From NCBI RefSeq assembly GCF_018977255.1, contig NW_024704742.1, positions 24,616,001 through 24,680,000 of the forward strand: a DNA stretch of 64,000 nt, in the 5' to 3' direction. The DNA comes from Callorhinchus milii (lineage: Eukaryota). The position numbers were made by a program, and so were the translations under genes. Every line of letters starts with the position of its first letter. The stretch's first letter is position 1. The notes below the pieces were generated by a model, which did not search any database, had not been told where the DNA came from, and was given only the letters and a program-made list of their open reading frames with translations. Below, in pieces: positions 1,527 to 41,192 of the stretch.

Positions 1527-1527
1527 T
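1488..1527. repeat. (TA)n microsatellite
   Basis: Direct reading. Confidence 0.9.
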
Positions 1528-2356: not shown

Positions 2357-3027
2357 CAAACAAACAAGCAAACAAACAAAATTACATTCGTATAATGCCT
2401 TTCATGTCGGGAGGACGTCTCAAGGCGCTAGACAATCAGCTTTTTGGAACCGAGCTGGGGGTCGGGATTAAAGGGATTGGGGGTGGGAGGGCAGGGGATG
2501 GTGGGCAGGGGTCTTGAGACGGATCATTGAGGCAAAAAGGGGCGATGCGGATGGACTGTGGGACAGAGTTACAGAGGACGGGGGCAGAGTGGCAAAAGGC
2601 CCGCCTGCCAATGGTGGGACAGACAAGGCGGGACGTGATGCAGGCCTGAGCCCGCTGAGCGGAGGGACTGTCTAGGTTGGTAGGGGGTTAGGAGGTTGCA
2701 GGGGTAGGGGGGAAGCAAAGCCATGCAGGGCTTTGAAAGTGAGAACCAGGATCTTGAATTGTATCCTCTGTGTGATGGGAAGTCAGTGTAGTTGGGCAAG
2801 GATGCGGGTGATAGGGTCGCGGAGCCTAGTGCGGGAGAGGACATGGGTTGTGGTGTGAGACAGTGGCAGAGCTGAGCGATGTTGTGGAGGTGGGGAAAGC
2901 GGAGCAGTCATGTCAGGGATGTGGGGTATGAAGGAGAGTTCAAGGTCCATGAAGGGAGATTCTGTCAGCGTCCGAGGGATGGCGATGCTGACGGCAGCCA
3001 AGAGGAGTGCCTCAGTCTTGTTGACAT
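2357..3027 (-). mobile_element. 5'-truncated L2 LINE inserted in the final codons of TLR2-A
   Basis: Begins with the (N)VNKTEALL segment, contains ELSFIPHI and LSRTRLRDPIT remnants, ends in the L2 tail gcgccttgagacgtcctcccgacatgaaagg...(ttgt)n. Confidence 0.9.
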
Positions 3028-5396
3028 CCTATGTTTTCCTCACCTTTTAATGCTACTTTTAAGTTAAACCAGAAGATTTTCTGTTCTACTTCATCCTCAG
3101 GCCATTCCAAATAGGTTTTTGTGTTCATCAGTTTCCTAAGCTTACAGAATCGCTGAGGAATGGTTTCCTTTGGGATTGGCTCCAACAGAACAAGAATGGC
3201 GGTGTCATTATTCTCATCAAACAGACGGAAATGAGAATAGTCCAGCTCGTACTTGCACCACTCGCTTTGGACAAAGTGTTGAGACAAGACAAACAGGGTC
3301 TTTCTGCTCTTCTCAATGGACTCAATGATGTTGTCAATTATCCACTTCCCTGGGATGAAATCGCGCTTATGAAGACAGAGTGTCACTGGTGGATGGGTAT
3401 TTTCTAATTCCCTCAGCAAGACGTTTTCCACCCACTCAGAATCCATCTCGCTGTAAGAAACAAATGCGTCGTAGAAAATATTATTATTCCTCACTTTCTT
3501 TGGCTTCCTTTTTGCCTGGAGCCACGCCCAGGTCATTTGGATGTACCAGATCCCGTGATACTTGTAGCACAATAGTCCCACAATAGCTATTGGCAAACAC
3601 AAAGCCACACACGACAAGGTGACAGAGAGTGTTGTGTGACAGTCAAAGAAAGAGCGCTTGGTATTTTTCACAATCATTCGCTTGACAACTAAAGGTGAAT
3701 CACAAATGTAGTTTTCCGGCCAGTTCAGCAGTTGTATTGAGTGGGTTAGGTATTTGTTTATATAGGTCAAGAATTCACAGGAACAGATGTAATGGTTCTT
3801 TCCAGCATCCAATGTTGTCAACTTATCGAATGTCGTGATTTCATCACTGGACATAGAGATGAGATTATTCCCACTGATCATCAGAATCTTCACGTTTGGT
3901 AGATAGCCACCGCCTGGTAAATACATCAGCTTGTTATTGGACACATTTAGTTCTCTGAGAGAAGGAAGGTGGGTAGTGAATGTCCTTATGTTATTGTTGC
4001 TTAAATCCAACACCTCGATATTTGGAGGGATGCACTGTGATATAGTACTTAATTGACTGCCTGAAAGGTTTAGAAATTGAAGAGTTTTTGACCATACACA
4101 AGAATCAACATCACTTAATGTATTCTGGCTTAAATCGAGGTGCGTCAGGTGGGTAATGTTAGATAAAATCGGGCTAATTTTCTTGAGAGAATGCAACTTA
4201 TTCTTTCTCAGAATAAGGTACATCAGGGAAGACCAGGAGTTCTCACAAACCATTTCTTTCATCATTAAATCAGTGAGCAAATTCTCCCTTAAATCAAGAT
4301 ACTCCAATCTTTGAAAATGTTGGGATATACCACATGGCATCATGAACAAGTTCAAGTTTGTCAACCTAGCTGTTCTAACATGGGATATCAAGCCATGAAG
4401 GAACGAAAGATCAAAAAATAAATAAAACTGTTTTATGGATATATGTCTGATTGTCAGTGAAATAAGTGATTCACATGTCATATCTTTAACTTTGTGCCAT
4501 TCTCCTCTTCCTGAAAATGCACAATTTTCTGCAACTAGTTCAGATATTCCACTGTCTCTTATATTTTTTAGTAAAACATATATTGTATTGTCACTCAGAG
4601 AACTATTTCTGAAGGTATATTTCTTCACTGATGAATTATTTGGCAATGAAAATAATTGAGTATCACTGGAACTCAGATATTCTAAGTCTCTCAGTTCAAC
4701 ATGGGTGGTGGCTGGTGCTAAATCCCAGATAATCCGTTGAACTAAGGACTGTTTTTTTTGGAATGGGTCATGTAAATTCATAGTGGCATGGCTTACATTT
4801 TGGAAAGAACTGAAACTTCTGTCTTCGTATGATTCTAATTTGTTTCCCAGTAAAATAAAGTCATCGAGATGTGAAATTCCTTCAAAGTCATCTTTCTTTA
4901 GATTAGACAAGAAAGCGTTTCCAACTTTTAACCACCGGAGGCTTTCCAGATGTGAGAAAAGTCTGCCTGGTCCCAGGTTTCTGTATTTATTCCCTGAAAG
5001 ATCCAGGTGTTGTAATTTGGAAAGATGCAGAAACCAAGCTGGTGAGAGTTGGATCAAGGAGTTATTGGACAAATCAAGGTATTCTAGGACCACGTTGCTC
5101 TTAAATGCCTGGTCATCAATAGACTGTATTTCATTTGATTGTAGCATAAGTACTTTGAGTTTAATATGCTTAGTGAGATCAGTTTCCTTGATGTGCGTTA
5201 TGAAGTTGTAGGAGAGGTTCAATCTTGAGACTTTCTCCAACACACGTGGAATAGTCACTAAGTTCATTGAAGAGCAGTTACAGAAGTTGCTGGAGTCACA
5301 TTTTTGACAGCTGTCTGCCTCTGAGCGAGCAATGTCCAGGTAAACACATGCAGCAGCAAGCAGCGTCCACACACTGACACCTCTCATGGTTCTCAT
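3012..5396 (-). CDS. TLR2: Toll-like receptor 2, paralogue A (794 aa, single coding exon; last residues CQQD* derive from an L2 LINE)
   Basis: Signal peptide, Cys-rich LRRNT, LxxLxLxxN repeats, TLR2-type QFYLFFDLS and FMMPC motifs, LRRCT, TM helix, TIR domain (YDAFVSYS, HKRDFIPGKW, SEWCKYELD, YLEWP). Acceptor tttcag|acacgtgtgaATG, exon starts at 5406. Confidence 0.96.
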   Translation of the reverse strand: MRTMRGVSVWTLLAAACVYLDIARSEADSCQKCDSSNFCNCSSMNLVTIPRVLEKVSRLNLSYNFITHIKETDLTKHIKLKVLMLQSNEIQSIDDQAFKSNVVLEYLDLSNNSLIQLSPAWFLHLSKLQHLDLSGNKYRNLGPGRLFSHLESLRWLKVGNAFLSNLKKDDFEGISHLDDFILLGNKLESYEDRSFSSFQNVSHATMNLHDPFQKKQSLVQRIIWDLAPATTHVELRDLEYLSSSDTQLFSLPNNSSVKKYTFRNSSLSDNTIYVLLKNIRDSGISELVAENCAFSGRGEWHKVKDMTCESLISLTIRHISIKQFYLFFDLSFLHGLISHVRTARLTNLNLFMMPCGISQHFQRLEYLDLRENLLTDLMMKEMVCENSWSSLMYLILRKNKLHSLKKISPILSNITHLTHLDLSQNTLSDVDSCVWSKTLQFLNLSGSQLSTISQCIPPNIEVLDLSNNNIRTFTTHLPSLRELNVSNNKLMYLPGGGYLPNVKILMISGNNLISMSSDEITTFDKLTTLDAGKNHYICSCEFLTYINKYLTHSIQLLNWPENYICDSPLVVKRMIVKNTKRSFFDCHTTLSVTLSCVALCLPIAIVGLLCYKYHGIWYIQMTWAWLQAKRKPKKVRNNNIFYDAFVSYSEMDSEWVENVLLRELENTHPPVTLCLHKRDFIPGKWIIDNIIESIEKSRKTLFVLSQHFVQSEWCKYELDYSHFRLFDENNDTAILVLLEPIPKETIPQRFCKLRKLMNTKTYLEWPEDEVEQKIFWFNLKVALKGEENIGCQQD

Positions 5397-5799
5397 TCAC
5401 ACGTGTCTGAAATAGAAATATAAAACATTTAATTGCAATTGACAACTGGGGTCATAGAAAGCAACACTGTTAGTGAACTCTTTCAGAGAATTAAATGCCC
5501 TTGCTTGGGTTGATCCTCTTCATAACTTTCACACATTAGAATGAAAAAAGCACCCTTTTGACCTCCTCTCATCTCCTTACCTGTATATATTCTCAGAACA
5601 ATCACCTCAGTTTGTGTTCCAAGGATCATGCTAATAAATTGCCAGTTAGTTTCTGGAATCGAACCTGACTCCCAAGTCTGGGGTAGAGTTGGTGGTATTC
5701 CTGTTTTGGTATCAAATCGGTGGCATGGCTTACATGATCCTCAACTGGATCAAATCAGCTCAGTAGCAAGTGCAAAAAGAATAGATGTCCTTAAGGTCA

Positions 5800-6008
5800 G
5801 TGGAGCACTGTAGCTCAGTGGTTAGAGCACTTGCCTCGCAAGCGAGAGAACCCGGTTTCGATTTCTGGACGGGTGAAAAGTTGGAAAAATTTCCTTTCCC
5901 GCACGTCTCTGTTTACCTAGTAGTAAAGTAGGACCCCGGTTGTTGGTCGATTGGCAAATCACTTTTCTGGGGGTAATAATTCTTCCAAAAAAAATTATAA
6001 TCATTTTG
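5800..6008 (+). mobile_element. tRNA-derived SINE, 5' half
   Basis: tgtagctcagtggttagagcacttgcctcgcaagcgagag head (A box, B-box-like) followed by SINE body. Confidence 0.8.
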
Positions 6009-6138
6009 TCACTCTTCTCCATGTTTGGACCGTGCTAGCAAGGTAATAGATGATAACTTGTGCCCATGTGGAACATCAGCCTGGTTCAGCTTGTGGTTCT
6101 CTTACTTTGCACTGACTATCTGTCTTGGTTAAACCTTC

Positions 6139-6620
6139 AGTCGCCAACCAGCGAGCGGAGGGATGGTCGCCAACCAGCGAGGGGCAGGGATGGTTGCCAG
6201 CCAGTGAGGGGCAGGGACGGTCGCCAGCCAGCAAGGGGCAGGTATAGTCGCTAGCCAGCGAGGGGCAGGTATAGTCGCTAGCCAGCGAGGGGCAGGTATA
6301 GTCGCTAGCCAGCGAGGGGCAGGTATAGTCGTTAGCCAGCGAGGGGCAGGTATAGTCGCTAGCCAGCGAGGGGCAGGGATGGTCGCCAGCCAACAAGGGG
6401 CAGGGATAGTTGCTAGCCAGCGAGGGCAGGGATGGTCGCCAGCCAGTGAGGGGCATGGATGGTCGCCAACCAGTGAGGGGCAGGGATAGTCGCTAGCCAG
6501 TGAGGGGCGGGGATGGTTGCCAGCCAGCAAGGGGCAGGGATGGTTACTAACTAGCGAGGGGCAGGGACGGTCGCCAACTAGCGAAGGGCAGGGACGGTCG
6601 CCAGCCAGCGAGGGGCAGGG
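6139..6620. repeat. GC-rich minisatellite, 27-bp unit (GGTATAGTCGCTAGCCAGCGAGGGGCA and variants), ~18 copies
   Basis: Direct reading; 9-aa periodicity in the overlapping ORFs. Confidence 0.93.
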
Positions 6621-7001
6621 CCTTGGAAACTCATGTAAACCGAGCGGGACTCACGGAAAGCAAGTCAGGCAGCGGCAGGGAGTCACAGGGCTGGTTTGGG
6701 ATCGGGACTGGAGGCAGCCAGAGGGAGGATCGGAGTCCTGGGGATCTGGACCGGCGTTAGCCAGAGGCAGGGTCTGGCTGGTAGCTGTAGTGGACCCTGA
6801 GGTGTGGCAGGTGCCTCGGGGATCGAGCGGCGGCCATTGCCTGGTAAGGGGGAGCCGCCATTTTGGACTTTCAGATTTTCCCACCATTCTGCATTATGTC
6901 ACTTTCGCCCGCCAGGTTTCAATCCCTGGTAGCAGCTACAGCATAGTTTATACCAGTGTCTCCCTCCCTCCCTTTGTCTGTCTCCCTCCCTCCCTCTCAT
7001 C

Positions 7002-7321
7002 ATGTAGCTCAGTGGTTAGAGGACTCACCTTGCAAGCGAGAGACCTGGGTTCAATTCCAGGCAGGTCAGGGCGAAACCTTGGCCAAGTTTCCTTACTCCA
7101 CACAGAGCCTAATAATAATCCTTCCAGAACAAAAACAACAATAAATTGGTCAGTTTCAATCCACGACTGTTTGTGGGACATTGCTGTGCGCAATTGGCTG
7201 CCGCTTTTTGCCCACAAATATACAGTCAGTTCATGTTATAGCATTTTCTGTGAAGCGCTTTGAGACGTCTGGAAGAAATGGAAAGTGCTATATCACATGC
7301 AAGGATTATTAGTATTATTAT
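7002..7321 (+). mobile_element. Full-length tRNA-derived Deu-type SINE
   Basis: tRNA head, ctgtttgtgggacattgctgtgcgcaattggctgccg core, L2-like tail with (tta)n. Confidence 0.88.
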
Positions 7322-7509
7322 CCTCTGTCTGTCTGTCTCCCTACCTCCCATCCTCTGTCTGTCTCCATCCCCTGTCCTTCCCCTCCAGGCTGCTCGTTGC
7401 TGACCACAATGAGCTTCCTGCCCCCTCTGCGCCACCTCTCGCCCCCACAGCCTCCTGCAGGCTGACAATGTCCCACTAATCCGCTGCCTCTCGTCTCAGC
7501 GTACGCATC

Positions 7510-10500
7510 TTGGCTGCCGCTTCCGACTCAAGCTGGCCCTCCCTCAAAATGTCCCACTCCCTGCAGCTCTCCCGCTCTGTCCTGCTATCTCTCCGCCCTC
7601 CCCGCCTTCTATCTCTGCTTGACCCCCCCCCCCCTCCCCACCCCACTGCCTCCCTCTGCTCCAGCCTGGGAATCCTCCGCCAGGCTCACCGTGGTACTCG
7701 GCGTTGGCACTGTCCAGCAGCAGCCACACCGACTGCCCATTCCCCACTGCCGTCGCAAGCCATCCCGGAGCCAGACCCCGGGGGCTAATCTTTTCTCCCT
7801 CATCCGCATCCGCACCCTCCCTGCCACTACCCCCTCCCATCCCACACATCCCCCTGCCAACTGTCCACTCCACAATGACCTTCAAAACGTCTGCTCCATC
7901 TGCAATAAGACCCTCGATGAGAACGTTGATATTATGGCCTTCACGGAAACCTGGATCACCCCAGGTGACAACTTCCCCCTCACCAAGGCCACACCACCTG
8001 GCCACACTTACCACCGTGCCCCACGCCCAACCGTCGTGGCAGTGGTGTGGCCCTCATATCCCGGGCGTCACTTGTCCTATCCCCCTACTCCACCGACTCA
8101 TTCCCCTCTTTTGAACACCTTACCCTCTGCTATCCTTCCCATCTCTCACTAAAAATCCTCCTCATTTACCGCCTCCCAAATCCTCCCCCACCTTCATCTC
8201 CACCCTCTTTGCTTCTTCCCTTTGCTCTGCTCCGACCGCCTCATCATCCTAAGTGACTTCAACCTCCATTTTACCCCCTCTTGCTCCAACTCCTCAGACT
8301 TCTCTGCTCTCCTCTCCTCTCTCAACCTTTCCCTCCACATCCACTTTGCTACACATGTTCATGGCCACCCGCTAGATCTGGCGATCACCCGGGGCCTCAG
8401 TGTCTCGGATGTCACCATCACCGACAAGGCCATTTCATCTCCCTCAACTCCCATATCTCTCTCCCCAATGGCTCCAAACCTACCACCATCTTCTACCGCC
8501 CCTGGAAGAAGATCTCCCCGCAATCCCTCTCCGCTGCCCTGGAGTCCTCTGATCTCCTCCCCCTCTGGCCCACCTCCCGCACCAACCCATCCTCTGCATT
8601 TACTCTCCTCCACAGCACCCTCTCCACCACACTCGATGCCCTTGCCCCCTAACCTCCCAAACTGCCTCCTATTCCTGATCCTCACCCTGGTTCACCAGTC
8701 ACCTCCGCTCGCTCAAGGGCCAGGTGTGGGCTGCCGACCACACTTAGCTCACATCCGGCCTAACGGTCCACCGCCACATCTGGCTGGACCTCACTAAGAC
8801 CTACTACTCCGCTCTCGCCTCAGCCAAATCATCCTTCTATTCCAGGTGAATCCTGGAGGCAAAGGGCAGCCCCAGGCTCCTGTTCTTCATCACCAACCAG
8901 CTCCTCCCCCCCCCCCCGCCATGCCTCGCAGATTCTTTCCTCTGACTCTCATTGCGAGGAAATGCTGAACTTCCTCGAGTCCAAAATCGAGGGAATCCGC
9001 TCAGCTGCCACTGCCCTCCCAACTTCCACTCCCTCACTACCCCCACCCCACACTCCAACAACTACCTACTCCTCCTTCCACACCTTTGAACCTGTCACTC
9101 CCTCCTCTATCATCACCACCATATCCTCCATGAAGCCCACCACCTGCTCCCTGGACCCCATCCCCATCCCTCTCCTTAAATCCCAGCTCCACCTCCTTGC
9201 ACCACTACTTGCCGACATCATCAACCTCTCTCTGTCATCTGTCCTACCCCCTCAAAACAGGCACTATCACCCCCACCTTGAAGAAACTTTTACTTGACCC
9301 AACACAACTATCTAGCTACCGACCCATCTCTAACCTCCCTTTTCTGTCCAAGGTCCTTCAGAGAGCTATTGCCTCCCAGCTTTGCTCCTTTCTCTCCTTC
9401 CACTCCCTCCATGAACCCTTCCAATCGGGATTCTGTGCTGCCCACAGAATGGAAACTGCTCTGGTCAAGGTCACAAACGACATCCTGACCTTGTATGACC
9501 AGGGCTCCCTCTGCCTCCTCCCACCTCAACCTCCAAGATTCTTGGCTTGACTGGTTCAGGTCCTACCTTTCACACCGCCTCCATTTCATCTCAGCTAACG
9601 GCTTCTCCTCCAGCCCCCACACCACCTTGTGCGATGTTCCTCAGGGCTCTGTCCTTGCTCCCCTCCTCTTCAACCTCTACATGCTCCCCCTTGGTGACCT
9701 CGGCAGACATGGGGTAAATTTCCATATGTATGTGGATGATACCCAGCTCTACCTCTCTGCCTCCACCCTGAACTCCAGGACTACTGGTGTCCTGACATCA
9801 AGTCCTGGAAGAGGGACAACTTTCTCCAGCTGAACGTCAGCAAGACTGAGGCCCTCATGATTGGCTTGCGCCAGCGCTTCCACACCTCAGTTGCTGGCAG
9901 CATCAGCCTCCACAGCTGCACACTCAACCTCACTAAGCCAGTCAGGAACCTCGGTATCTTGTTTGACCCTGAACTGTCCTTTCTCCCCCACATCCACGCC
10001 ATGACCGGCACTGCCTACCACCACATCCGCAACATTGCCAGACTCCACCACTGCCTCATCCCTCAGGCTGCCGAAGCCCTCACCCACGCATTCGTCACCT
10101 CAAGACTCATTTATGGAAATTACCTCCTCATCGGCCTTTCCAACTTTTCACTTCCCCTGCAGGTCATCCAAAGCTCATGTACCCTTGCACACCAGGCTTC
10201 GTGACCCCATCATTCCCACCCGCGCCAGACTCCACTGGCTACCCAGCCCTCAGAGGATCGAATTCAAGATCCTCGTCCTCACTTTCAAGGCCATCCATGG
10301 CCTTGCCCCCTCCTACCTCTCTGACTTGCTGACTCCCTACCAACCTGCCCACTCCCTCCTTTCAAAGGGCTCCGGCCTGCTCCATGTCTCCCGCCCGACC
10401 CACCCTACCATCAGTGGCCGGGCTTTCAGTCTCTCTGCCCCCACGCTCAAGAACTCCATCCCACGGTCCCTTCGCCTCGCTTCCTCCCTTGCCTCCTTGA

Positions 10501-10650
10501 AGGCCGGTTTCAAGACCCTCCTCTTCAATCGTGCCTTTGGTTGCCCTCCCTCACCCCTATCCCACCTCTCCACCATGCTCGGATCCTGACCCCTGACTGT
10601 CCAGCACCTTGGGACGTCCTCCCGACGTGAAAGGTGCTCTATAAATGTAA
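7510..10650 (+). mobile_element. Near full-length degenerate L2 LINE (APE endonuclease + RT, frameshifted)
   Basis: FTETW, SDFNLH, GHPLDL, YRPISNLPFLSKV, FQSGF, VPQGSVLAP, YVDDTQLY, LHWLP motifs; L2 3' tail. 5' boundary approximate. Confidence 0.92.
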
Positions 10651-10674
10651 GAAAGATCACCTCCTCCTTTGGAG

Positions 10675-10967
10675 AAGTCCTGTAGCTCAGAGCAAGAGAC
10701 ATGGGTTTGTTCCCACCAGGGAGAAACCTTGGACAAGTTTCCTTACTCCACACACCTGATAATAAACCCTCAAGAAAAAAAACAATAATAATTTGGTTAC
10801 TTCAATCCATGACTGTTTGTGGGTCACTGCTGTGTGCAATTGGCTGCCGCGTTTCGCCCACAAATATACAGTCAATTCACTTTACAGTGTATTCTGTGAA
10901 GCGCTTTGAAACGTCTAGAAGACGTGAAAAGCGCTATATCAAATGCAAGGATTATTATCATTATTAT
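10675..10967 (+). mobile_element. tRNA-derived Deu-type SINE
   Basis: Same family as 7002-7321, head partly deleted. Confidence 0.85.
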
Positions 10968-11283
10968 CCTGGACAGAGGTGTGCGGCTGGCTTGTCATTC
11001 AGTCCAATCAGGAGCTCGGCACATTTGTGCTTCACAAAATGTAAAGAACATTCAGATTTAACAGAGAACAGTGCAAGTGTGTCTCAAGTGAGTGCAAGTC
11101 TCAAGAAAAGAGAAAATTAGCTTTCTACCACATGTGGCTACCAGATTCAATAAATGCTCGAAAGCGTAATCAGTGACGTTGTACAACATCAAGAAAATTA
11201 CATTTGTAAAAGCCCCTTTCATGTCAGGAGGACATCCCGACGTGCCAACGTCCCGACAGGCGGATAGATCTGATGTGTAACAT

Positions 11284-11650
11284 GTGGAGCCCTATAGCTC
11301 AGTTAGAGCAGTTGCCTCGCAAGCGAGAGGACCTGGGTTGAATTCCTGGGCAGAGCGAAAGATTTGTGCAAGTTTCCTTACTGCACAGGCCTCTGTTTAC
11401 CTAGCAGTAAGTAGGAATCCAATTGTAAGTCAATTGGCAGATCTCTTAAAAAAAAAACCTACTAAATAATAATTTGGTCACTCAATCTTCGACTGTTTGT
11501 GGGACACTGCTGTACCCATTTGGCTGCCCCATTTTGCCCACAAAATATACAGTCAATTCACTTTACAGTATGTTCTGTAAAGCGCCTTGAGATGTCTCGA
11601 AGGTGTGATAAGGCATTATATCAAATGAAAGGATTATTATTATTATTATA
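11284..11650 (+). mobile_element. tRNA-derived Deu-type SINE
   Basis: Head, core and (tta)n tail. Confidence 0.85.
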
Positions 11651-12275
11651 TTTTTACACCAGTGGAAGCCTGGTAACCCTGATATTTCAGACAACAGGTG
11701 AAGTATGAGTGTGAGCTTCCAAATGACACATTTTCAATTGCAAAAATAAAAGCAGGAAATCAACCCTTTTCTAATTACTAATCACACAAAACTGCATAAA
11801 TTATGTGCCAATCTCACCTAATAAAAGGAGGTAATTTGCAGTGTTTACAACATCACACTGCCATTCTTTATTATCCTGCATTCTTTCAAATAAGCCAGGA
11901 ATGTTGTCCATTTCCCCGGAAAACTCGACCTTAACTCAGTCTCAATACACTCACCCTGTTATATAAGGCATGGCTAATGTTACCATTACAAACATTTCTC
12001 TAGCCAGTGCCCAACTCCACTGATGTTTTCTTTTCCACATTGCCTTTGACTATGCAATACAAAATTACATTTATAATGTACCTTTCACGTTGGGAGGACA
12101 CCTGGAGGACACTATGTTGCGTCAATGTTTAATCTTCCTGCCTTGTTAAAGGTATTTTGACAACTGTATTTGGAGTGGTATATAAAGTGGCCAGGTCAAG
12201 GTAAATGCTGAATCTTCACTCACTGGACAGTGATTCTTTTCTTTGTGAAAATGATCACAGCAGCTCTCACTGTTA

Positions 12276-15830: not shown

Positions 15831-15899
15831 CCGCCTCCGACTGTACCTTACACCTAATGCAGATAAAACCCTCAACCATGCTTTCATGCCCCTGCCCAG

Positions 15900-19052: not shown

Positions 19053-19079
19053 TATACATTATTCGTATATACAATATAC

Positions 19080-21135: not shown

Positions 21136-22464
21136 CAGTAAAACTCACATAAGTTGTATGAGTTGGGATCATAATTTTTAATATGACTGATGCAGAGTAT
21201 CTATCAGTTATGACAAACTTGTATAAGTCGTATCAAATATGATTTATGTAAAGTTTTGTATAAGTCAGATTCTATATGACTAATACATGCCAAATACACA
21301 AGAACTGTACTGTGACGTTACTGGTGACATTAAGGCAAGGTTTGTGTGCCATGTTTAACACATGAAAAATGGATGGGCTGCAGCTTGCCAAAGGTGAAGC
21401 AGAAAGAGATCTTGTGGTGTTTTCAACGCTCACCACATGAAAAGCCAGAACAATACTTTTTGATTCACCAAAACAGCAGAAAAAGTGGGCAAAGATTTAA
21501 AGTTATAAAGGGTAATTCAGGACAGACACCACTATATGTGGAGTCCTATAGCTCAGAACCACTTAGCTCACAAGCGAGAGAATTAATGCAGACCCAGCCT
21601 TTATATTTGAAAACCCAATGTGTTCCTTAAGCACAGATGGGGGAAACAGATCATTGCTATATAAATAACAATAGCAGACGTCAGGTGCTTTGCCTGAATG
21701 CATGACAAAGACTCGGTAGGTGGAAGTTCCGCACTCATGGCCTCTGAGTTACTTAACATTTTTATTGTGATATTATTTCATACTTCCTATTAGCTGTTTC
21801 TCTTCTCTCTTGCTGTTTCACTTCTCTCTTCCTCTTTCACTTCTGCTAGAATTGAAAAGAATGATAGTCTTTGTCCAGGAAACTGCAGGCCAGTCATCTT
21901 AACATCACTTGTGCAAGCTGTCAGAATCTATAACAATAAAGGTTTAAGTAACCCGTCACTTGGAAAAGGAGAACATAATTTACAAAAGGAAGGTTATGTT
22001 TGATCAACCTTAATGAATTCTTTGAAGATTTAATCGATATAGGCTTTATTGAATCCAGTAGCCATATGTGGTAGAAAGCTAACTTGCTTTGTTCTTGAGA
22101 CTTGCACTCACTTGAGACGCACTTGCACTGTTCTCTGTTGAGTCTGAATGTTCTTTACATTTTGTGAAGCACAAATGTACGAGTGACCCAGTGATGATTC
22201 TCTCTCTAATTCTCATCTCTTACCTCAGCTTCCCATATAGCAGTGGTGGTCAACCCTGCAGGTTGGCCTAGAGACCCATGTTTCGACCATCCTGGACAGA
22301 GATGTGCAGCTGGCTTGTCATTCAGTGGCCATAAATCAAGAAATATTCAATCAAGAACAATTTATTTAATTGGCCGACCATAAAGATTGGCCATATAGAA
22401 TACTTATAGGATATAGGATGCCATATAGGACGCGTGTGTGAATGGGCAAAGCAATTTATAAGGC

Positions 22465-28847: not shown

Positions 28848-29752
28848 GATAGTTACTATGGGATCTAAATGAGATGCATTTTAGAAGAAGCGAAGTAGAC
28901 AGACAAGGAAGAAGGGAATATAAGGGAGGGAGTAAGGAGTGGATGGCGAATGGAGCATGTGGTGTACAAACACCAGGATGGACTAGCTGGGCCGAATGGC
29001 CTCTTTCCGTGCTGGAAATCAATGTAAAGTTTATTTAATATTTAGCTAGTAGTTTGTGGATAATCTTAGAATGTAAAGACCCCTTTGCACAGTTTTTCAC
29101 AATTTGTTTCACATTTTAGCACTTGAGATAATCCTTGCATTTGAAATAACGCTTTTCACGTCTTCTAGACGTCTCAAAGAGCTTCACAGAATATGCTGTA
29201 AAGTGAATTGACCGTATATTTGTGGGTGAGATTTACACTCATCCTCCTATCTCTACCCTCCCCTGTCCTCCACACCTCTTGCTCCCAACTCCCAGTTCGG
29301 GTTCAAATCCTTGACTGTCCAGCACCTTGGGACATCCTCCCGATGTGAAAGGTGCTATACAAATATAATTTCCCGTCGTTGTTTTGTATCCTTTTAGCAG
29401 ATACATATGTGGTTATGGTCATGAAATTTTCAGTCATATGGATAAATTGCAATGCTTTTTCTGGTAGATCTCTTAATAAGAAATGTGTAATTAGCAAATT
29501 TCAGTACGTTCACATGTAGAAATTTCATCTTGATTTACTCTGGATGGGAACAAATTAAGCCCCTAAAATTGAAGACTTCATGAGAAACCACCATAATTCC
29601 TACAAAGTACGCGGTCACTTTGCCTTAAATCCCGTGAAACACTTTGAGATATCCTGCTGATGTGACAAGAAATATATTAAATACAATGATTATTAATGAT
29701 GAGAGGGCCTTTATGAGGGTCTCAGGGGGTAGCCTTTTTCAAGGGCGGTAGA

Positions 29753-32063: not shown

Positions 32064-32556
32064 TAGGGGTAATAGTGGATGATTTCAATCGCCACATAGA
32101 TTGGGAAAACCAAATCAGCAAAAGTAGGTTAGAAGAAGAGTTCATTGAGTGTATGAGAGATAACTTTCCAGAGCAACATGCCGAGGAACCAACTAGGGGA
32201 CAGACCATCCTGGATCTTGTTTTGTGTAATGAAACAAGGCTAGTCGGCAGTGTAGGTATTAAGACTCCTCTAGGGCAGAGTGATCACAATATGATTGAAT
32301 TCTGCATTAAGTTAGAGAGGGATATAATTAAATCCGAGGCAAGTATTCTGAATTTAAATAAGGCTAATTTTGTAGGTATGAGGAAAGATTTAGGTAAAAT
32401 AGACTGGAGAATAAGATTAAGAGGTAAAACTGTAGACCAACAGTGGCAAATATTTAAGGATGTAGTGCATAATTCTCAGCGGTCGCATATTCCCTTGCGG
32501 AATAAGAGTACCACAGGGAAAGCAATTCATCCGTGGCTAACTAGAGCAGTTAGGGA

Positions 32557-33476
32557 ACAACAACAACAACAAGATTCCATTTATAGAAGCGCCTTTCACG
32601 TCGGGAGGACGTCCCAAAGCGCTGGACAGTTGGGTCAGGATCCGAGCAGGGGGGAAATGGTCAGGGTGGGGGGAGGGAAGGGAGGGGGCAAGGAGGGGGT
32701 AGAGAGTTGAGAGGGGAGCTGAAGGCACGGTCAAAGAGATCGGCCTTGAAGGAGGAAAGGGAGGAGGCAAGGCGAAGGCACTGGGGGATAGAGTTCCAGA
32801 GCCTAGGGACTGAGAAGCTGAAGGCCCGGCCACCGATGGTAGGGCGGTTGGGGCGGGGGATGTGGAGCAGATCGGAGTCAGAGGAACGGAGGGTACGGGC
32901 AGGTAGATAGGGGGATAGTAGGTCGGAGAGGTAGGAGGGAGCGAGGCCGTGAATGGCCTTGTAGGTGAGGATGAGGATCTTGAATTCGATCCTCTGGGGG
33001 ATGGGGAGCCAGTGGAGGCGAGCGAGGGTGGGAGTGATGTGGTCCCGAAGCCTGGTGCGGGACAGTACACGAGCTGCAGAGTTCTGAATGACCTGCAGCT
33101 TGTGGAGGGAGGTGCCGGGAAGGCCGACGAGGAGAGAGTTCCCATAGTCCAGCCTTGAGGTGATAAAGGCGTGGACCAGAGTTTCAGCAGCGTGAGGGGT
33201 GAGGTAGTGCCGTAGTCTGGCGATGTTCCGGAGGTGATGGAAAGCGGTGCCACTTGTGGCGCGGATGTGGGGAAGAAAGGACAGCTCAGGGTCGAACAGA
33301 ACACCGAGGTTCCTGACCGGCTTTGAGAGGTGGAGAGTGCAGCCTTGGATGCTGATGCTGTCAGCGCCTGAGGTGCGGAGGCGCTGACGTGAGCCAATCA
33401 GGAGGGCCTCAGTTTTACGCATGTTGAGCTGAAGAAAGTTGTCTCTCGTCCAGGACTCGATGTCAGACAGGCAGGC
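32557..33476 (-). mobile_element. Young L2 3' portion inserted in CR1
   Basis: 253-aa open L2 ORF2 C-terminus; candidate TSD AGGGA at 32552-32556 and 33477-33481. Confidence 0.92.
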
Positions 33477-34812
33477 AGGGAAAGCATCAAATTAAAACAA
33501 AAAGCTTATAAAACTGCCAAAAAAAAGCAGCAAATCTGAAGATTGGGAGGCTTTTAGAAACCAACAAAAAAAACCTAAAAAACTCATTAAGAGCGAGAAA
33601 AAGGAACATTAAGTCAGATTGCAAAGGTTTTTACAAATACATTAAGAGGGATAGGCTAGTGAGGGTAAATGTAGGTCCACTTCAGTCAGAGACGGGAGAA
33701 GTTGTAATGGGGGATAAGGACATGGCAGAGTCCCTAAATTAGAAGACACAACCAATCTGCCAACAATAGGGATGCACCAAGGGGATAAGGACAGGGAGCA
33801 ACTTAGGGAAATTTTCATTGGTAGAGAATTGGTGCTAGGGAAACTGTTAGTACTAAAGAGTGACAAATCCCCTGGTCCGGACGGCTTGCATCCCAGGGTT
33901 TTAAAAGGGGTATCTTATGAGATAGTGGAGGCCTTGTGTCTGATTTTCCAAAATTCCTTGGATTCTGGAACAGTCCCCATGGATTGGAAGATTGCAAATG
34001 TCATACCACTATTTTAAAAAGGTGGAAAGGAAAGGATGGGAAACTATAGGCCAGTTAGTCTCACATCACTGATAGGAAAAATTTTAGAATCGTTGATTAA
34101 GGATGTGGTAGTGCGGTATTCAGGGGAGCACAATATAATTAGGCCAAGTCAGCATGGCTTTACAAAAGGGAAGTCATGTTTAACAAATTTCATAGAATTG
34201 TTTGAGGATATTTCGTGTAAACTAGATAAGGGTGAATCAGTGGTTGTGGCCTATTTAGACTTCCAGAAGGCATTCGATACGGTGCCACATAAAAGGTTAG
34301 TCCAAAAGATAGGGGCCCACGGAATTGGGGGGAGCATATTAACATGGATTGGGGAATGGTTAACGGGTAGGGACAAATAGTAGGGATAAACGGGTCCTTT
34401 TCAGATTGGCGGGATGTGACTAGTGGAGTGCCACAAGGATCAGTCCTTGGGCCTCAGCTATTTACCGTCTACATCACTGATCTAGATGAGGACATCGAAG
34501 TTAATATATCTAAATTCGCGGATGACACAAAACTAGGAGGAAGTGTCAACACAGAGGATGACATTAAAAAAATGCAGCGAGACATTGATAGGTTAGGTGA
34601 TTGGGCAGGTAGGTGGCAGATGAAGTATAATGTAGGGAAGTGCGAAGTCATCCACCTAGGTAGCAAAAACAGTAGAGCAGGTTATTTTTTAGAAGGGGAG
34701 AGATTGGAATGTGTTAGCGTCCAGAGGGACTTGGGTGTCCTTGTACACCAATCACAGAAAGTTAGTCTACAGGTGCAGCAGCAATTGGGAAGGCGAATGG
34801 TATGTTAGCATT

Positions 34813-35630
34813 CATAGAATCATAGAATTATAGAATCGTACAGCACAAAAAGAAACCATTCGGCCCATCGAGTTTGTGCCGGCTCTTTGATTAGAGCAAT
34901 TAATGTCAATCCCACTCCCCGGCCCTTTCCCCATAACCCGGGTTTCGTCCTCCTTAAATACCCGTCCACCGCGTTTTTAAAAGTAGTTATCAAATCGGCC
35001 TCCACCACCCTTTCAGGCAATACGTTCCAGATTCGAACAACTCGCTGCGTGAAAAAAATTCTTCTCACCTCCCCTCTGCTTCTTTTGGAGACTATTTTGA
35101 ATCTGTAACCTCGAGTCACCGACACACCCACCAGTGAAAACAGTTTTTCCCTTTCTACCCTATCATATCCCCTCATGATTTTGAAGACCTCTATTAGGTC
35201 TCCTCGTAACCTTCTCTGCTCCAATGAGAACAATCCCAGTCTCTCGTGCCTTTCCTCATAATCAAGGTCGCTCATTCCTGGTACCATCCTTGTAAATCTC
35301 CTCTGCACCCTTTCCAATGCTTTAACATCCTTCCTATAGTGTGGTGCCCAGAATTGGGTGCAGTATTCCAACTGAGGCCTAACCTGTGCTTTATATAGGT
35401 TAATCATAACCTCCTGACTCTTGTACTCTATGCCCCTGTTTATAAAGCCTAGTATCCCATATGCCCTTTTTACAGCTTTATCTACCTGTCCTGCCACCTT
35501 CAAGGATTCATTTACCTGCACCCCCAGGTCTCTCTGTTCTTTCACCCCCCTTAAGATTGTATCACCTAACCTATATTGCCTCCCCTCATTCTTTCTACCA
35601 AATTGCATTACCTCGCATTTCTCCACATTG
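34813..35630 (-). mobile_element. Young CR1 3' portion inserted antisense in CR1
   Basis: Open CR1 ORF2 C-terminus (KCEVMQFG...LEYCTQFWAP...FFTQRVV); tctatga-like tail repeats. Confidence 0.92.
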
Positions 35631-36261
35631 AAAGGATTATGAAAGGATTAGAGTATAAGAGTAGGGAAGTCTTGCTGCAACTGTATAGGACCCTGGTGAG
35701 ACCACACCTGGAATACTGTGTGCAGTTTTGTCTCCTTATTTAAGGAAGGATGTACTTGCCTTGGAGGGGGTGCAGCGTAGATTTACTAGGTTAGTACCAG
35801 GGATGAAGGGGATGAGTTACGAGGATAGGCTGACCAATTTGGGCCTATATTCTTTAGAATATAGAAGAATTAGAGGGGATCTTTTTAGAAACCTATAAGA
35901 TCATCAAAGGGCATGATAGAGTAGATAGTGGGAGATTGTTTCCCCTGGTTGGAGAAACTAAAACCAGGAGTCACAACTTTAAAATCAGAGGCCAGCCCTT
36001 TCGCACTGAGTTGAGGAAGAACTTCTTCACTCAAAGGGTGGTGAACGTATGGAACTCTCTACCCCAAAGGGCTGTTGATGCTCAGTCCTTGAACATATTC
36101 AAGACTGAGATAGATATATTTCTTATTGCAAAAGGGATTAAGGGATATGGGGATAAGGCAGGGTTATGGTATCAACTGGAGTTAGATTAGAAGATCAGCC
36201 ATGATTGAATGGCGGGGCAGGCTCGAAGGGCCGAATGGCCTACTCCTACATGTTATGTTAT

Positions 36262-36563
36262 GTTGCCTTCGTTCCTCCGGGTCTGGCCTCCTCCTCGTCC
36301 CCCGAGTCCTCCGCTCCACCCTCGGTCGCCGTGCCTTCAGACACTATGCCCCAAGGCTCTGGAACTGCCTTTCTCACTCCCTTTGCCTCGCTCCCTCCCT
36401 TCCTATTTTCAGGTCTCTGCTGAAGACCTTTCTTTTCGGCCGCGTCTTTGGTCACTTTCCTCCCCCTCCCCCTGGCTCGGCCCCGGGATCCGTTACTGTG
36501 AAGTGCTCTGAGATGCCATCCGGTGTGGAGGGCGCGATATAAATCCAAGTTGTTGTTGCTGTT
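36262..36563 (+). mobile_element. 3' end of the L2 begun at 29753
   Basis: Collinear with the uninterrupted copy at 27115-27501 after a ~25-bp gap. Confidence 0.87.
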
Positions 36564-37299
36564 ATTATTATGCTATATTCTTAGCTTTTCAAAGCATCTA
36601 GCATTGACAAATTGTTGAATGAAGTTCTCGAAAGAACTTACAAAAAACTGGCTTCAAAAATTAAGACTGAATTCATCAAATGGATTTTTGGAATGCCAAA
36701 TCCCAATTTCGCTAGGATTTAGTTTTGTAACCTGCTTGAAATCATCTTTTAAACTACAATTTAATCCGTCACTAATAATAATTCTTACATATGGCCATAA
36801 TCTGCCTTTGTAAAGAGCTCAACATGAAGAGTGCTGTATAAATGCAAGTTGTCGTTGTTGTACAGTGTTTATAAGTTATTTTTTATGACGAGAGCATTTT
36901 TACAGAGATTTAAAACACTTTATTTCACTGCTTCCAGAATCAAAGGAATTATCTGTGGTAACCTACCTTGCAACATGGCTAGGATAGCTTCTGCAGTAAT
37001 TAACTCACCAAAAGTTAAAACTGACTTTAACGTCAAATATTTACATGAACAATTTGGTTGAAAAATATTGGCTCATGTCATAATTGTATTTACTTGTTAG
37101 ATTAAATGTTTCTGCGTATCCAGTTCTTTCTTATATGATTCTATTGATCCTGGATAAAGCCATTTCACCCGCCTATGTCTCTCCTAAAGGCCAGATAGAG
37201 AAGCCTCAGCTGACTTTTTTTTACATAACAATAACTTGCATTTATATAGCGGTCTACACTCCAGATGGCGTCCAAGTGGTGGTTAACAATGGCGGAGCC

Positions 37300-38640
37300 C
37301 AATGCAATCTTAAAATGGGGAAAGAGGGGGCAAGGCGAAGGGACTGAGGGAGGGAGTTCCATAGTGCTGGGGGACACAGGGCAGGAGGATGAGGCTGCCA
37401 GGCAGATGTTTTCTATTTTGGAGGTAAGGAGATCCATGACCTCTTCACACTTGGCATTTGATGTAATGATTGAGGGTGCTAGAGGGGTGCACGGAGGACG
37501 TGGTGGGTGGAGTTTAGAGTTATTTTTGGCCTCCAGAATGATCTTTGAGTAATACACAGTTTTTGCTTGCGAGAGGGAGCGGCAGTAGGTGTGAAGGTGC
37601 TTGAGCCACAGATGGTGGTGAACTATGAGGCTGGTTTTTTGCCATTTGCTTCGAGTAACCAGGTTTGTGATTTTAGGGAATGAAGATGGCTGTTGTACCG
37701 GGGGAGCGGGAGCATTTGAAGACAGTCCTGGATTTCAGGGAGCCAAGGGAGTTCAAGGTGGAGGAGAGGCAATCATGGAGCAGCTTGATGGCTGCATCAG
37801 GATTGCTGCGGGTGGTAGGCCAGAGGAAGAGGAGGTCTGAGGATGGAAGGGCATTTGTGAGGGTCCCGGGGACTGTCTTTTCCATGGGTGGAAAAGGATG
37901 GTGGAGGGCTTGATGGAGGGAAAAGGGATGCAAGAAGAGAGGGAGACAAGGAAATGGGCTGAGAGGGCCTTGTTGGTGATTGATAGGCCAGAGATATCTA
38001 AGCTGTGGGTGATAACAAGGTCCAGGGGGTGGCCATGGTTATGGGTCAGGGAGTTCATATGGAGGATGAGATTTAGGGTGGAGAGGAGTGCAGTGAAGTC
38101 AAAGGAAGTGGGGCAGGAAGAGTTGAGATGAAGGCTGAAGTTGCCTGTGATGAGCATGCATTCAGTGCAGAGGGACAGGGATGAGAGGAGAGAGATGTCC
38201 ATGAGGAAGGAGCCAGGAAGTTTTGGGAGGAGCAGTGCACAAGGAGGAATTTGAAGGAGAGAGGAGGGATGGTGGAGGTGCTCAAAAGAAGGGAAACAGC
38301 CAGAGGAATAGTGGGGTAGATTAAGAGAGATTTGGGAGATGAGGGCCACACGACTGCCGAGATGGTTGGGGTGGGGTGGGGGTGACGGAGTTGCCGGAGG
38401 GCGGCCAGGTTTCCATGAGCCCTACGATGTCAACTTGCTCATCTAGGATGGGGTGGTGGATGGTGAGGGCTTTGTTTGAGAGGGAGCGAAGTTTTGGAGG
38501 GTGATGCTGGTGGGGGCGCTGATGGGATTGGATGCTGGGGAGAGGGTGTTGCAGATTGTGGGGGGAGAGCAACTGTGGGATTTGAGGGGGGAGGAGAGTT
38601 GTGAAGGGTGGGAGTGAGGGAAGGGTTTGCCTTATAGGTG
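37300..38640 (-). mobile_element. Degenerate L2 5' portion (APE region) in the intron upstream of TLR2-B
   Basis: LSNKALTIH, GLMETW, GHPLDLVIT, YYSKIILEAK remnants. Confidence 0.85.
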
Positions 38641-38810
38641 CGGGGGAGGGTTTTGCGTAATGAGTGGCTGCTCTGGGACAACCAACGATATGTGCCATGA
38701 TAAGCTTTGAAATGGCATCCTGATGTGAAAGGCATGATAACAAATATAAGCATTATTATTATTTGTAGGAAAATAAAAGCAATATTTTCTTTTATTTCAG
38801 ACACGTGTGA

Positions 38811-41192
38811 ATGAGAACCATGAGAGGTGTCAGTGTGTGGACGCTGCTTGCTGCTGCATGTGTTTACCTGGACATTGCTCGCTCAGAGGCAGACACCTGT
38901 CAAAGATGTGACTCCAGCAACTTCTGTAACTGCTCTTCAATGAACTTAGTGACTATTCCACGTGTGTTGGAGAAAGTCTCAAGATTGAACCTCTCCTACA
39001 ACTTCATAACGCACATCAAGGAAACTGATCTCACTAAGCATATTAAACTCAAAGTACTTATGCTACAATCAAATGAAATACAGTCTATTGATGACCAGGC
39101 ATTTAAGAGCAACGTGGTCCTAGAATACCTTGATTTGTCCAATAACTCCTTGATCCAACTCTCACCAGCTTGGTTTCTGCATCTTTCCAAATTACAACAC
39201 CTGGATCTTTCAGGGAATAAATACAGAAACCTGGGACCAGGCAGACTTTTCTCACATCTGGAAAGCCTCCGGTGGTTAAAAGTTGGAAACGCTTTCTTGT
39301 CTAATCTAAAGAAAGATGACTTTGAAGGAATTTCACATCTCGATGACTTTATTTTACTGGGAAACAAATTGGAATCATACGAGGACAGAAGTTTCAGTTC
39401 TTTCCAAAATGTAAGCCATGCCACTATGAATTTACATGACCCATTCCAAAAAAACCAGACCTTAGCTCAACGGATTATCTGGGATTTAGCACCAGCCACC
39501 ACCCATGTTGAACTGAGAGACTTAGAATATCTGAGTTCCAGTGATACTCAATTATTTTCATTGCCAAATAATTCATCAGTGAAGAAATATACCTTCAGAA
39601 ATAGTTCTCTGAGTGACAGTACAATATATGTTTTACTAAAAAATGGAAGAAACAGTGGAATATCTGAACTAGTTGCAGAAAATTGTGCATTTTCAGGAAG
39701 AGGAGAATGGCACAAAGTTAAAAATATGACATGTGAATCACTTATTTCACTGACAATCAGACATATATCCATAAAACAGTTTTATTTATTTTTTGATCTT
39801 TCGTTCCTTCATGGCTTGATATCCCATGTTAGAACAGCTAGGTTGACAAACTTGAACTTGTTCATGATGCCATGTGGTGTATCCAAAAGTTTTCAAAGAT
39901 TGGAGTATCTTGATTTAAGGGAGAATTTGCTCACTGATTTAATGATGAAAGAAATGGTTTGTGAGAACTCCTGGTCTTCTCTGACGTACCTTATTCTGAG
40001 AAAGAATAAGTTGCATTCTCTCAAGAAAATTAGCCCGATTTTATCTAACATTACCCACCTGATGCACCTCGATTTAAGCCAGAATACATTAAGTGATGTT
40101 GATTTTTGTGTATGGTCAAAAACTCTTCAATTTCTAAACCTTTCAGGCAGTCAATTAAGTACTATATCACAGTGCATCCCTCCAAATATCGAGGTGTTGG
40201 ATTTAAGCAACAATAACATAAGGACATTCACTACCCACCTTCCTTCTCTCAGAGAACTAAATGTGTCCAATAACAAGCTGATGTATTTACCAGGCGGTGG
40301 CTATCTACCAAACGTGAAGATTCTGATGATCAGTGGGAATAATCTCATCTCTATGTCCAGTGATGAAATCACGACATTCGATAAGTTGACAACATTGGAT
40401 GCTGGAAAGAACCATTACATCTGTTCCTGTGAATTCTTGACCTATATAAACAAATACCTAACCCACTCAATACAACTGCTGAACTGGCCGGAAAACTACA
40501 TTTGTGATTCACCTTTAGTTGTCAAGCGAATGATTGTGAAAAATACCAAGCGCTCTTTCTTTGACTGTCACACAACACTCTCTGTCACCTTGTCGTGTGT
40601 GGCTTTGTGTTTGCCAATAGCTATTGTGGGACTATTGTGCTACAAGTATCACGGGATCTGGTACATCCAAATGACCTGGGCGTGGCTCCAGGCAAAAAGG
40701 AAGCCAAAGAAAGTGAGGAATAATAATATTTTCTACGACGCATTTGTTTCTTACAGCGAGATGGATTCTGAGTGGGTGGAAAACTTCCTGCTGAGGGAAT
40801 TAGAAAATACCCATCCACCACTGATACTCTGTCTTCATAAGCGCGATTTCATCCCAGGGAAGTGGATAATTGACAACATCATTGAGTCCATTGAGAAGAG
40901 CAGAAAGACCCTGTTTGTCTTGTCTCAACACTTTGTCCAAAGCGAGTGGTGCAAGTACGAGCTGGACTATTCTCATTTCCGTCTGTTTGATGAGAATAAT
41001 GACACCGCCATTCTTGTTCTGTTGGAGCCAATCCCAAAGGAAACCATTCCTCAGCGATTCTGTAAGCTTAGGAAACTGATGAACACAAAAACCTATTTGG
41101 AATGGCCTGAGGATGAAGTAGAACAGCAAATCTTCTGGTTTAACTTAAAAGTAGCATTAAAAGGTGAGGAAAACATAAGAGGACATCAGTAA
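38811..41192 (+). CDS. TLR2: Toll-like receptor 2, paralogue B (793 aa, single coding exon)
   Basis: Same architecture and ~97% aa identity to copy A; acceptor tttcag|acacgtgtgaATG at 38800/38801; tail-to-tail with RNF175 as for human TLR2. Confidence 0.97.
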   Translation: MRTMRGVSVWTLLAAACVYLDIARSEADTCQRCDSSNFCNCSSMNLVTIPRVLEKVSRLNLSYNFITHIKETDLTKHIKLKVLMLQSNEIQSIDDQAFKSNVVLEYLDLSNNSLIQLSPAWFLHLSKLQHLDLSGNKYRNLGPGRLFSHLESLRWLKVGNAFLSNLKKDDFEGISHLDDFILLGNKLESYEDRSFSSFQNVSHATMNLHDPFQKNQTLAQRIIWDLAPATTHVELRDLEYLSSSDTQLFSLPNNSSVKKYTFRNSSLSDSTIYVLLKNGRNSGISELVAENCAFSGRGEWHKVKNMTCESLISLTIRHISIKQFYLFFDLSFLHGLISHVRTARLTNLNLFMMPCGVSKSFQRLEYLDLRENLLTDLMMKEMVCENSWSSLTYLILRKNKLHSLKKISPILSNITHLMHLDLSQNTLSDVDFCVWSKTLQFLNLSGSQLSTISQCIPPNIEVLDLSNNNIRTFTTHLPSLRELNVSNNKLMYLPGGGYLPNVKILMISGNNLISMSSDEITTFDKLTTLDAGKNHYICSCEFLTYINKYLTHSIQLLNWPENYICDSPLVVKRMIVKNTKRSFFDCHTTLSVTLSCVALCLPIAIVGLLCYKYHGIWYIQMTWAWLQAKRKPKKVRNNNIFYDAFVSYSEMDSEWVENFLLRELENTHPPLILCLHKRDFIPGKWIIDNIIESIEKSRKTLFVLSQHFVQSEWCKYELDYSHFRLFDENNDTAILVLLEPIPKETIPQRFCKLRKLMNTKTYLEWPEDEVEQQIFWFNLKVALKGEENIRGHQ

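Follow-up and report, generated by a model that had tools for sequence, protein, structure and literature searches.

Two inverted TLR2 genes of Callorhinchus milii very probably homogenised by interlocus gene conversion up to a LINE junction

How two copies of one receptor gene can agree almost letter for letter across their coding exon, while the introns beside them do not align, is the question raised by a 64,000-nucleotide (nt) stretch of the Callorhinchus milii genome (C1:24616001-24680000 of a 991.5-Mb assembly), hereafter the window, to which the coordinates below refer. The window contains two TLR2 genes. An older inverted duplication, followed by interlocus gene conversion that homogenised the whole block of uninterrupted homology between the two copies, is very probably the answer. 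Copy A occupies 3012..5396 on the minus strand and copy B 38811..41192 on the plus strand. Each is a complete single-exon coding sequence (CDS), of 794 and 793 amino acids (aa), respectively, copy A being recognised by its open reading frame (ORF) and by Pfam matches to LRR_8 and TIR, and copy B having a tail of the ancestral type (...ENIRGHQ). The two intact, inverted ORFs 33 kb apart reported by the initial annotation are indeed present, and they are arranged head to head with start codons 33.4 kb apart.

The assignment to TLR2 was examined by several comparisons. Pfam detected LRR_8 (E = 1e-40 in copy A and 2e-39 in copy B) and TIR (E = 2e-22 and 3e-22), and both copies have the architecture of a Toll-like receptor, i.e., a leucine-rich repeat (LRR) ectodomain, a transmembrane stretch and a cytoplasmic TIR domain within about 790 aa. 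Matches in the PDB included solved TLR2 ectodomains (E = 4e-106) as well as TLR2's TIR domain (E = 3e-75). The closest named proteins were the TLR2 of 13 elasmobranchs, with 55–62% aa identity, while bony-vertebrate TLR2 reached 37–49% and TLR1/6 were lower, at about 30–38%. Both window proteins fell in one 90%-identity cluster with proteins named Callorhinchus milii TLR2, and the A/B pair was sister to all elasmobranch TLR2 in trees built with IQ-TREE (quick run) and FastTree. A and B were the only TLR2 loci in the 991.5-Mb genome, the next-best locus being at most 36% identical, and a genome-wide search for a third TLR2 donor found none beyond these two.

The near-identity of the two copies forms a single block. 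BLAST aligned A 5418..3030 with B 38790..41177 at 98.9% identity over 2389 nt, with 25 mismatches, and this sequence was matched in the genome at A and B alone. The block on the A side (3030..5418, minus strand) comprises about 12 nt of intron, the splice acceptor, 10 nt of 5′ untranslated region (UTR) and CDS nt 1–2367, and the B side (38790..41177) lies on the plus strand; CDS nt 1–2367 of the two copies align without a gap. Roughly 30 differences in about 2370 nt had been counted initially, and a naive count does give 32, made up of the 25 mismatches of the block and of 7 in the last 15–18 nt, which are unrelated between the copies. The absence of any aa difference over residues 33–214 and 433–658 was likewise reproduced by alignment of both proteins.

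At the 5′ edge, both copies carry tatttcag followed by ACACGTGTGA and the ATG, the shared start of near-identity that had been noticed before; the acceptor lies at 5407..5414 (minus strand) in copy A and at 38793-38800 (plus strand) in copy B, and A/B identity starts about 12 nt ahead of the exon. Farther upstream the introns do not align, as had also been claimed: local alignment of the 150 nt upstream of the block scored 11, against 10.2 ± 1.7 for shuffled sequences (P = 0.37), so that no older 5′ homology between A and B was detectable in this comparison. The intron of copy A beside the acceptor (5419..5800, minus strand) occurs once in the genome, and nothing corresponding to it lies near B. 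The intron of copy B (38377..38768, plus strand) contains dispersed repeats (555 candidates covering query 1-329), with a second repeat family at 38703-38768 (plus strand, query 144-209). Origin of either gene as a processed retrocopy was rejected, since both copies keep the tatttcag acceptor, the sequence upstream of A is single-copy and unlike the surroundings of B, and a B-type contig ends its match at the acceptor in the manner of a spliced RNA.

The 3′ edge of the block is set by a repeat. A/B identity ends 15 nt before the stop codon of copy B, and at this point copy A continues into a 672-nt element (2358..3029, minus strand) that has a (TTTG)n-like tail and the same orientation as the gene. 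This repeat was read as the 3′ fragment of a 5′-truncated non-LTR retrotransposon, i.e., a putative long interspersed nuclear element (LINE); a first look at the genome returned 12520 candidates with 75–83% identity, and its relatives within the window lie directly 3′ of ORFs with an RVT_1 (reverse-transcriptase) domain. The LINE was inserted 15 nt ahead of the stop codon that copy A had ancestrally, and its junction matches the 3′ end of the block to the base. The last five residues of copy A (GCQQD) and its stop codon are LINE-encoded, and the same tail is found in the gene models P0140 and P0141. Behind the LINE, at 2231..2357 (minus strand), stand the displaced ancestral last codons of copy A, their stop codon (TAA) and the start of the 3′ UTR. 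They correspond to the last codons and 3′ UTR start of copy B (41179..41306, plus strand), and are old, unconverted homology. This remnant is 86.9% identical between the copies over 107 nt (A 2357..2252 versus B 41179..41285) and 82% over 128 nt. The figure of about 87% given by the initial annotation for the 3′ UTR was thus accurate, while the LINE interruption and the ancestral last codons and stop had been missed. With these edges, a conversion first called exon-limited would be more accurately termed confined to the uninterrupted homology block, which ends at the LINE on the 3′ side and is approached on the 5′ side by the repeats of the B intron to within about 21 nt.

In the whole genome, the 3′ remnant was found at three places only, B, A and a further site in the window, A2, and is not a dispersed repeat. 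In A2 (1527..1676, minus strand) the junction at which the LINE tail meets the 3′ UTR is present a second time, with 94% identity to 2367..2220. Because A2 holds this junction and has diverged from A by 6%, the LINE must have been inserted before the approximately 1% divergence of the block arose; the insertion therefore predates the event that formed A2, itself about six times older than the block divergence. Near A2, a 100-nt piece is inverted (2142..2042 versus 1401..1500, 95%), which together with the A2 duplication makes up a small local rearrangement (1401-2367).

Divergence differed strongly between the block and the remnant behind the LINE. The Jukes–Cantor (JC) distance of the block was 0.0105 overall, and the Nei–Gojobori method gave a synonymous divergence (dS) of 0.0081, from 4 synonymous differences in 494 synonymous sites, and a nonsynonymous divergence (dN) of 0.0113, from 21 differences in 1873 sites. 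The 3′ remnant had a JC distance of 0.134, and Fisher's test of block versus remnant was significant both with all sites counted (p = 1.9e-10) and with synonymous sites alone (p = 2.5e-8). A block diverged to the same degree as the remnant should show about 60 synonymous differences, where 4 were observed, and 766 of the 770 conserved residues are written with the identical codon in A and B. The block is far more alike than its paralogous flank, synonymous sites included, and it has sharp edges and a mosaic of identical and differing stretches. That an old pair should have kept its CDS alike through purifying selection only has next to no probability. Strong purifying selection has been reported for elasmobranch TLR genes (bioRxiv 10.64898/2026.03.23.713620), but such selection cannot remove synonymous differences, and a dS of 0.008 beside a flank at 0.134 refutes this explanation; the remaining differences are, moreover, mostly nonsynonymous (21 versus 4), the opposite of what constraint predicts.

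The same contrast bears on a recent duplication of a near-exon-sized unit without conversion, in which the diverged 3′ piece would have no part in how the duplication came about. The lack of homology above the acceptor, and beyond +128 nt on the 3′ side, fits a unit of about exon size. However, the 3′ piece occurs at this locus alone, continues the block of copy B, starts with the ancestral last codons and stop behind the LINE, and is 13% diverged where the block is 1% diverged. A TLR2 3′ end was thus present at the A site before the block became identical, and pasting an exon exactly between the old intron of copy A and an older LINE would amount to conversion, which makes a duplication of this kind highly improbable. 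With a TLR2 3′ end already standing at the A site behind the older LINE, the exon was overwritten in place, i.e., by interlocus gene conversion. The proposal made at first, of an older duplication and a later conversion of the exon, is therefore supported by the JC distance of 0.134 for the remnant against the block dS of 0.008, and by the restriction of the remnant to this locus.

The most probable history begins with an older inverted duplication yielding two functional-looking TLR2 paralogues. A LINE fragment then inserted in the last codons of copy A, separating the old tail and 3′ UTR from the exon. Since that time, non-allelic conversion between the inverted exons has very probably homogenised the 2389 nt from the acceptor side to the LINE junction, while the severed 3′ piece kept diverging. 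The block with its two edges, the old homology behind the LINE and the order of these events are established by the comparisons above. The mechanism would presumably be homologous recombination repair, by heteroduplex formation or synthesis-dependent copying. Palindromes on sex chromosomes are spaced inverted repeats kept near-identical by intrachromosomal arm-to-arm conversion, and crossing-over between palindrome arms would invert the spacer, not delete it. Compared with large palindromes, the arms here are 2.4 kb long and are single immune-receptor exons, and the 33-kb spacer is mostly LINE debris.

Near-identical inverted copies often trouble assemblers, and one real gene copied or collapsed into two places during assembly or polishing was considered as the source of the pair. 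Read evidence consisted of Logan contigs of runs X1–X6, in which both copies collapse and phase is not recoverable; runs X1–X4 may include the assembled sample, which leaves room for such an artefact. Against it, the flanks of A and B are wholly different, the window is without Ns, and the edges at which contigs end or are bridged are shared by two samples, with both sets of letters present in the contigs. One X1 contig spans exactly 3030..5417 (2388 nt) with mixed A/B letters (11 other letters) at a depth of 21.9, versus 10.7–14.3 for unique-flank contigs, and an X2 contig of depth 12.9 runs from 3030 across the 5′ junction of copy A to 5831, with flank contigs at 6.1–8.3; these depths are consistent with two collapsed copies, contig depth being a rough guide and not a copy number. 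In X5, a B-type contig of 3619 nt aligns to 3030..5409, shows 26 differences to A and has ends of its own of 382 and 857 nt. Older gene models, made separately, weigh more heavily than the contigs and represent both copies, P0140 and P0141 being of A type and P0139 of B type at 19 of 19 diagnostic residues. Each type is tied to its own upstream sequence, the model-specific upstream exons mapping to 5534-5629 (minus strand) in the flank of A and to 38532-38573 (plus strand) in that of B, and the LINE-encoded tail is present; the A-type models differ from copy A at two further residues only (415, 733). An artefact is accordingly extremely unlikely, and both copies occur in independent data.

The upstream exons of P0141 and P0139 join the main exon at codon 28/29 and omit the signal peptide, and these starts are probably model artefacts or minor isoforms; that of P0139 (38532-38573) lies within a dispersed repeat. 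That runs X5 and X6 represent RNA is only a guess, no run being recorded as such. The match of the X5 B-type contig ends at 5409, at the acceptor, whereas DNA-type contigs reach 5417 or beyond, a weak hint of what would be expected of a spliced B transcript if X5 is RNA. B type is likewise seen in those X6 contigs that cover the CDS. Contigs of X5 and X6 cover the unique sequence 1-2071 downstream of copy A, and bin 6004-6670 is uncovered in both; this cover could come from a long 3′ UTR of A running through the LINE or from a separate transcript. The first AATAAA on the strand of copy A is at 1462. Hexamers resembling poly(A) signals are found in the 3′ flank of copy B at 41858 (ATTAAA) and 41973, and the B-type contigs of X6 and X5 run 707 and 857 nt beyond the block, to about 41884 and 42034, respectively, that of X6 ending 21 nt past the ATTAAA at 41858.

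The differences that survive within the block were unevenly distributed. The proteins differ at 19 residues, namely 29, 32, 13 sites within 215–432, 659, 671, 672 and 773. The 25 nt differences consist of 21 nonsynonymous and 4 synonymous changes, the latter spread over nt 561–1978, and 16 of the 25 fall in aa 215–432, the central LRRs, where the nonsynonymous to synonymous ratio is 15:1. Identical runs of 679 and 465 nt separate them (longest run, P = 0.0056; two longest together, P = 0.0004). Neighbouring differences were at most 12 nt apart in 12 of 24 cases, versus 2.9 expected under a uniform null, with 0 of 200000 permutations as high, and this micro-clustering persisted under a null that preserved regional densities (P = 0.0001). 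Such a pattern is compatible with several tracts that differ in age, or with selection acting on certain loops.

These data bear on whether the block was converted once or repeatedly. One single recent conversion of the whole block, followed by fast aa divergence without repetition, is possible though doubtful. It would agree with a dS that is low throughout (4 synonymous differences across nt 561–1978) and with the identity of all 19 diagnostic residues in the independent models; with 21 of 25 differences nonsynonymous, selection or relaxed constraint alone could have placed them. On the other hand, the block fills the available homology to both ends, which many events would achieve more easily, and the distribution of the differences is far from even (P = 0.0004 to 0.0056, and the micro-clusters). 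In addition, 11 of 11 shark pairs, described below, are 94.3–99.2% identical despite an old duplication, which needs repeated conversion there. Conversion of the A/B pair was probably repeated, in more than one event, a number that we infer from the uneven differences and the shark data. The word "continuing", used for this conversion in the initial annotation, is compatible with these two observations and goes further than they do, the two model sets agreeing at 19 of 19 diagnostic residues.

In comparison with 13 elasmobranch sequences, copy A has the odd state at 219, 281, 659, 671 and 773, and copy B at 32, 418, 432 and 672, so both copies have changed at otherwise conserved sites. The ligand pocket was mapped by alignment to 6NIG in human numbering, verified on seven named residues, and sites 270, 279, 281, 305, 357, 359 and 360 aligned to human residues 264–358. 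In the human receptor, the span of LRR9–12 forms the lipopeptide site, for which eleven pocket residues are named (PMC5037785). These eleven aligned to 272, 289, 300, 316, 321, 324, 327, 330, 350, 351 and 352, and A and B were identical at all eleven predicted pocket positions, most, although not all, of which are hydrophobic in the fish. The surviving differences may reflect relaxed or diversifying selection on two receptors.

TLR2 pairs of sharks were compared through predicted proteins (P0002-P0137, from sharks and rays). Two TLR2 proteins each were obtained for 11 shark species by cluster look-up, while Rhincodon and Chiloscyllium plagiosum were represented by one sequence each, and the ray clusters P0008, P0010, P0013 and P0014 were kept outside the count of second copies. 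In a FastTree analysis of 33 rows, all 11 shark pairs and the window pair grouped by species (support 97–100), and the within-species shark copies were 94.3–99.2% identical over aa 30–769. Among 55 species-pair quartets, residues before 770 gave 8099 sites grouping by species, 3 by paralogue and 0 of the third pattern, versus 11, 214 and 6 sites, respectively, from residue 770 on. Each of the 11 species has one tail of a type called alpha (FWFNL..AL.GD...) and one of a type called beta (NFWLSLKVALKEE.N.TD-like), the types being assigned by eye. The sawfish tail is beta and the skate tails are alpha, which suggests reciprocal loss in rays. On the strength of these predicted proteins, one old duplication followed by concerted evolution of nearly the whole coding exon is the likely history in sharks; if the tails are orthologous, the duplication would be at least as old as the shark–ray ancestor. 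Gene conversion seems to act on the shark TLR2 pairs too.

The tails of both window copies match alpha better, and no relic of a beta-type tail was found in the window, which implies that the pair arose by an independent duplication or that conversion erased its tail as well. Across the 12 pairs, within-species differences were enriched in aa 215–432 (p = 1.5e-8), 88 of 180 falling there when 53 would be expected. Copies differ at position 357 in 4 of the 12 pairs, and at positions 217, 279, 409 and 740 in 3 of 12 each; the recurrent positions (279–281 and 354–360 of copy B) could reflect recurrent tuning or simply be fast-evolving sites. A far-reaching extension, speculative and rather improbable, would make the window pair no young duplicate of its own lineage but the holocephalan version of one duplication in early cartilaginous fishes, converting for hundreds of millions of years. 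Only the last ~20 residues (alpha and beta tails) would have escaped in sharks and rays, with conversion in the chimaera having overrun the tail until the LINE arrived. Selection would then re-create differences in the same loops on the pocket side (279–281, 354–360), where the copies of several species differ, and the two receptors would be tuned to ligands while having a co-evolving signalling scaffold in common.

Gene conversion between TLR1-family paralogues is established in other vertebrates, for TLR2A/TLR2B and TLR1A/TLR1B in birds and for TLR1/TLR6 in mammals (PMC3125219, PMC2077338, PMC6107061). The bird genes resemble the window pair in being neighbouring TLR2 paralogues with a single-exon CDS, closer within a species than between orthologues and converted in the TIR, with 99% identical codons in the converted parts (PMC3125219), compared to 766 of 770 residues here. 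In birds, however, the central region (about LRR9–14) is unconverted, sorts by paralogue and has 56% identical codons (PMC3125219). Conversion extends over this region both in the window and in sharks: the shark copies keep only their last ~20 residues unconverted, and in the window, where the pair is inverted and 33 kb apart, only the tail and 3′ UTR behind the LINE are spared. A divergent central region sorting by paralogue is thus absent, sharks having 3 by-paralogue sites before residue 770. The comparison with birds drawn by the initial annotation consequently holds for the conversion of neighbouring paralogues and fails for the central LRRs, which escape in birds and show 1 synonymous difference in 654 nt (aa 215–432) here. 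Mammalian TLR1/TLR6 are likewise tandem paralogues of the TLR1 family whose divergence is limited by conversion (PMC2077338), but they are another gene pair and are converted in the C-terminal part only (PMC3125219).

For cartilaginous fishes, a recent preprint describes TLR2 as duplicated in most sharks and single in most rays, with three tandem copies at 99–100% identity in two squaliform sharks (bioRxiv 10.64898/2026.03.23.713620). The gene family and the high within-species identity are the same as here; the preprint reads them as lineage-specific copy number (10.64898/2026.03.23.713620), whereas the present protein data point to an old duplication, two conserved tails and concerted evolution. 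The term "gene conversion" is absent from the accessible text of that preprint, whose main text gives no chimaera copy number, although a supplementary figure may give one (10.64898/2026.03.23.713620), and the available portions of the whale shark genome paper make no mention of TLR2 conversion (PMC8455134). Full-text literature searches found no title or abstract describing TLR2 conversion in cartilaginous fishes. TLR2 conversion is itself of a known kind; what is added here is the LINE-bounded tract and the family-wide pattern in sharks.

Several points weigh against conversion of an older pair as the explanation. The unconverted homology is short (107–128 nt) and one-sided, with nothing older on the 5′ side, and the duplication unit may accordingly have been hardly bigger than the exon. 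The lineage is represented by two sequences only, A and B of a single holocephalan, and the shark evidence consists of predicted proteins only. The clustering of differences could reflect uneven constraint instead of several tracts, and the two independent gene-model sets, in agreement at all 19 diagnostic residues, give no sign of present-day conversion. Contig depth, as said, is a rough measure. Finally, the dN/dS, at 1.39, does not exceed 1 significantly (p = 0.38), and positive selection as proven by this value or by the 15:1 ratio was rejected.

Elsewhere in the genome, four more open single-exon frames resembling the TLR1 subfamily were found, of 806–849 aa and 32–36% identical to copy B (L003–L006, at C5:9528158-9530422, C1:47505386-47507695, C740:28178-30472 and C5:48709098-48711383, respectively). 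Among 26 ORFs of the spacer and flanks, Pfam revealed no neighbouring genes, only RVT_1 and Exo_endo_phos domains. A duplicated promoter or 5′ exon was sought as low-copy inverted-symmetric matches in the 33-kb spacer, and only LINE-type matches were obtained. The spacer also contains a 134-nt inverted pair (11021-11154 versus 22045-22178, 92.5% identity) in a bin of very high repeat depth, which is probably a young SINE-like (short interspersed nuclear element) repeat.

With this pair, cartilaginous fishes join birds and mammals as lineages in which TLR1-family paralogues evolve in concert. The dated LINE insertion provides an unusually clean marker of a tract boundary, to the base, with a "fossil" of the older divergence preserved behind it. 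Near-identical TLR2 copies of sharks and chimaera mimic recent species-specific duplications in protein trees, while the C-terminal tail types shared among sharks indicate an old duplication masked by conversion, and orthology calls, the dating of duplications and analyses of selection change as a consequence. The few differences that persist mostly change an amino acid and lie next to the ligand pocket, in the central LRRs; they may mark functional tuning of the two receptors.

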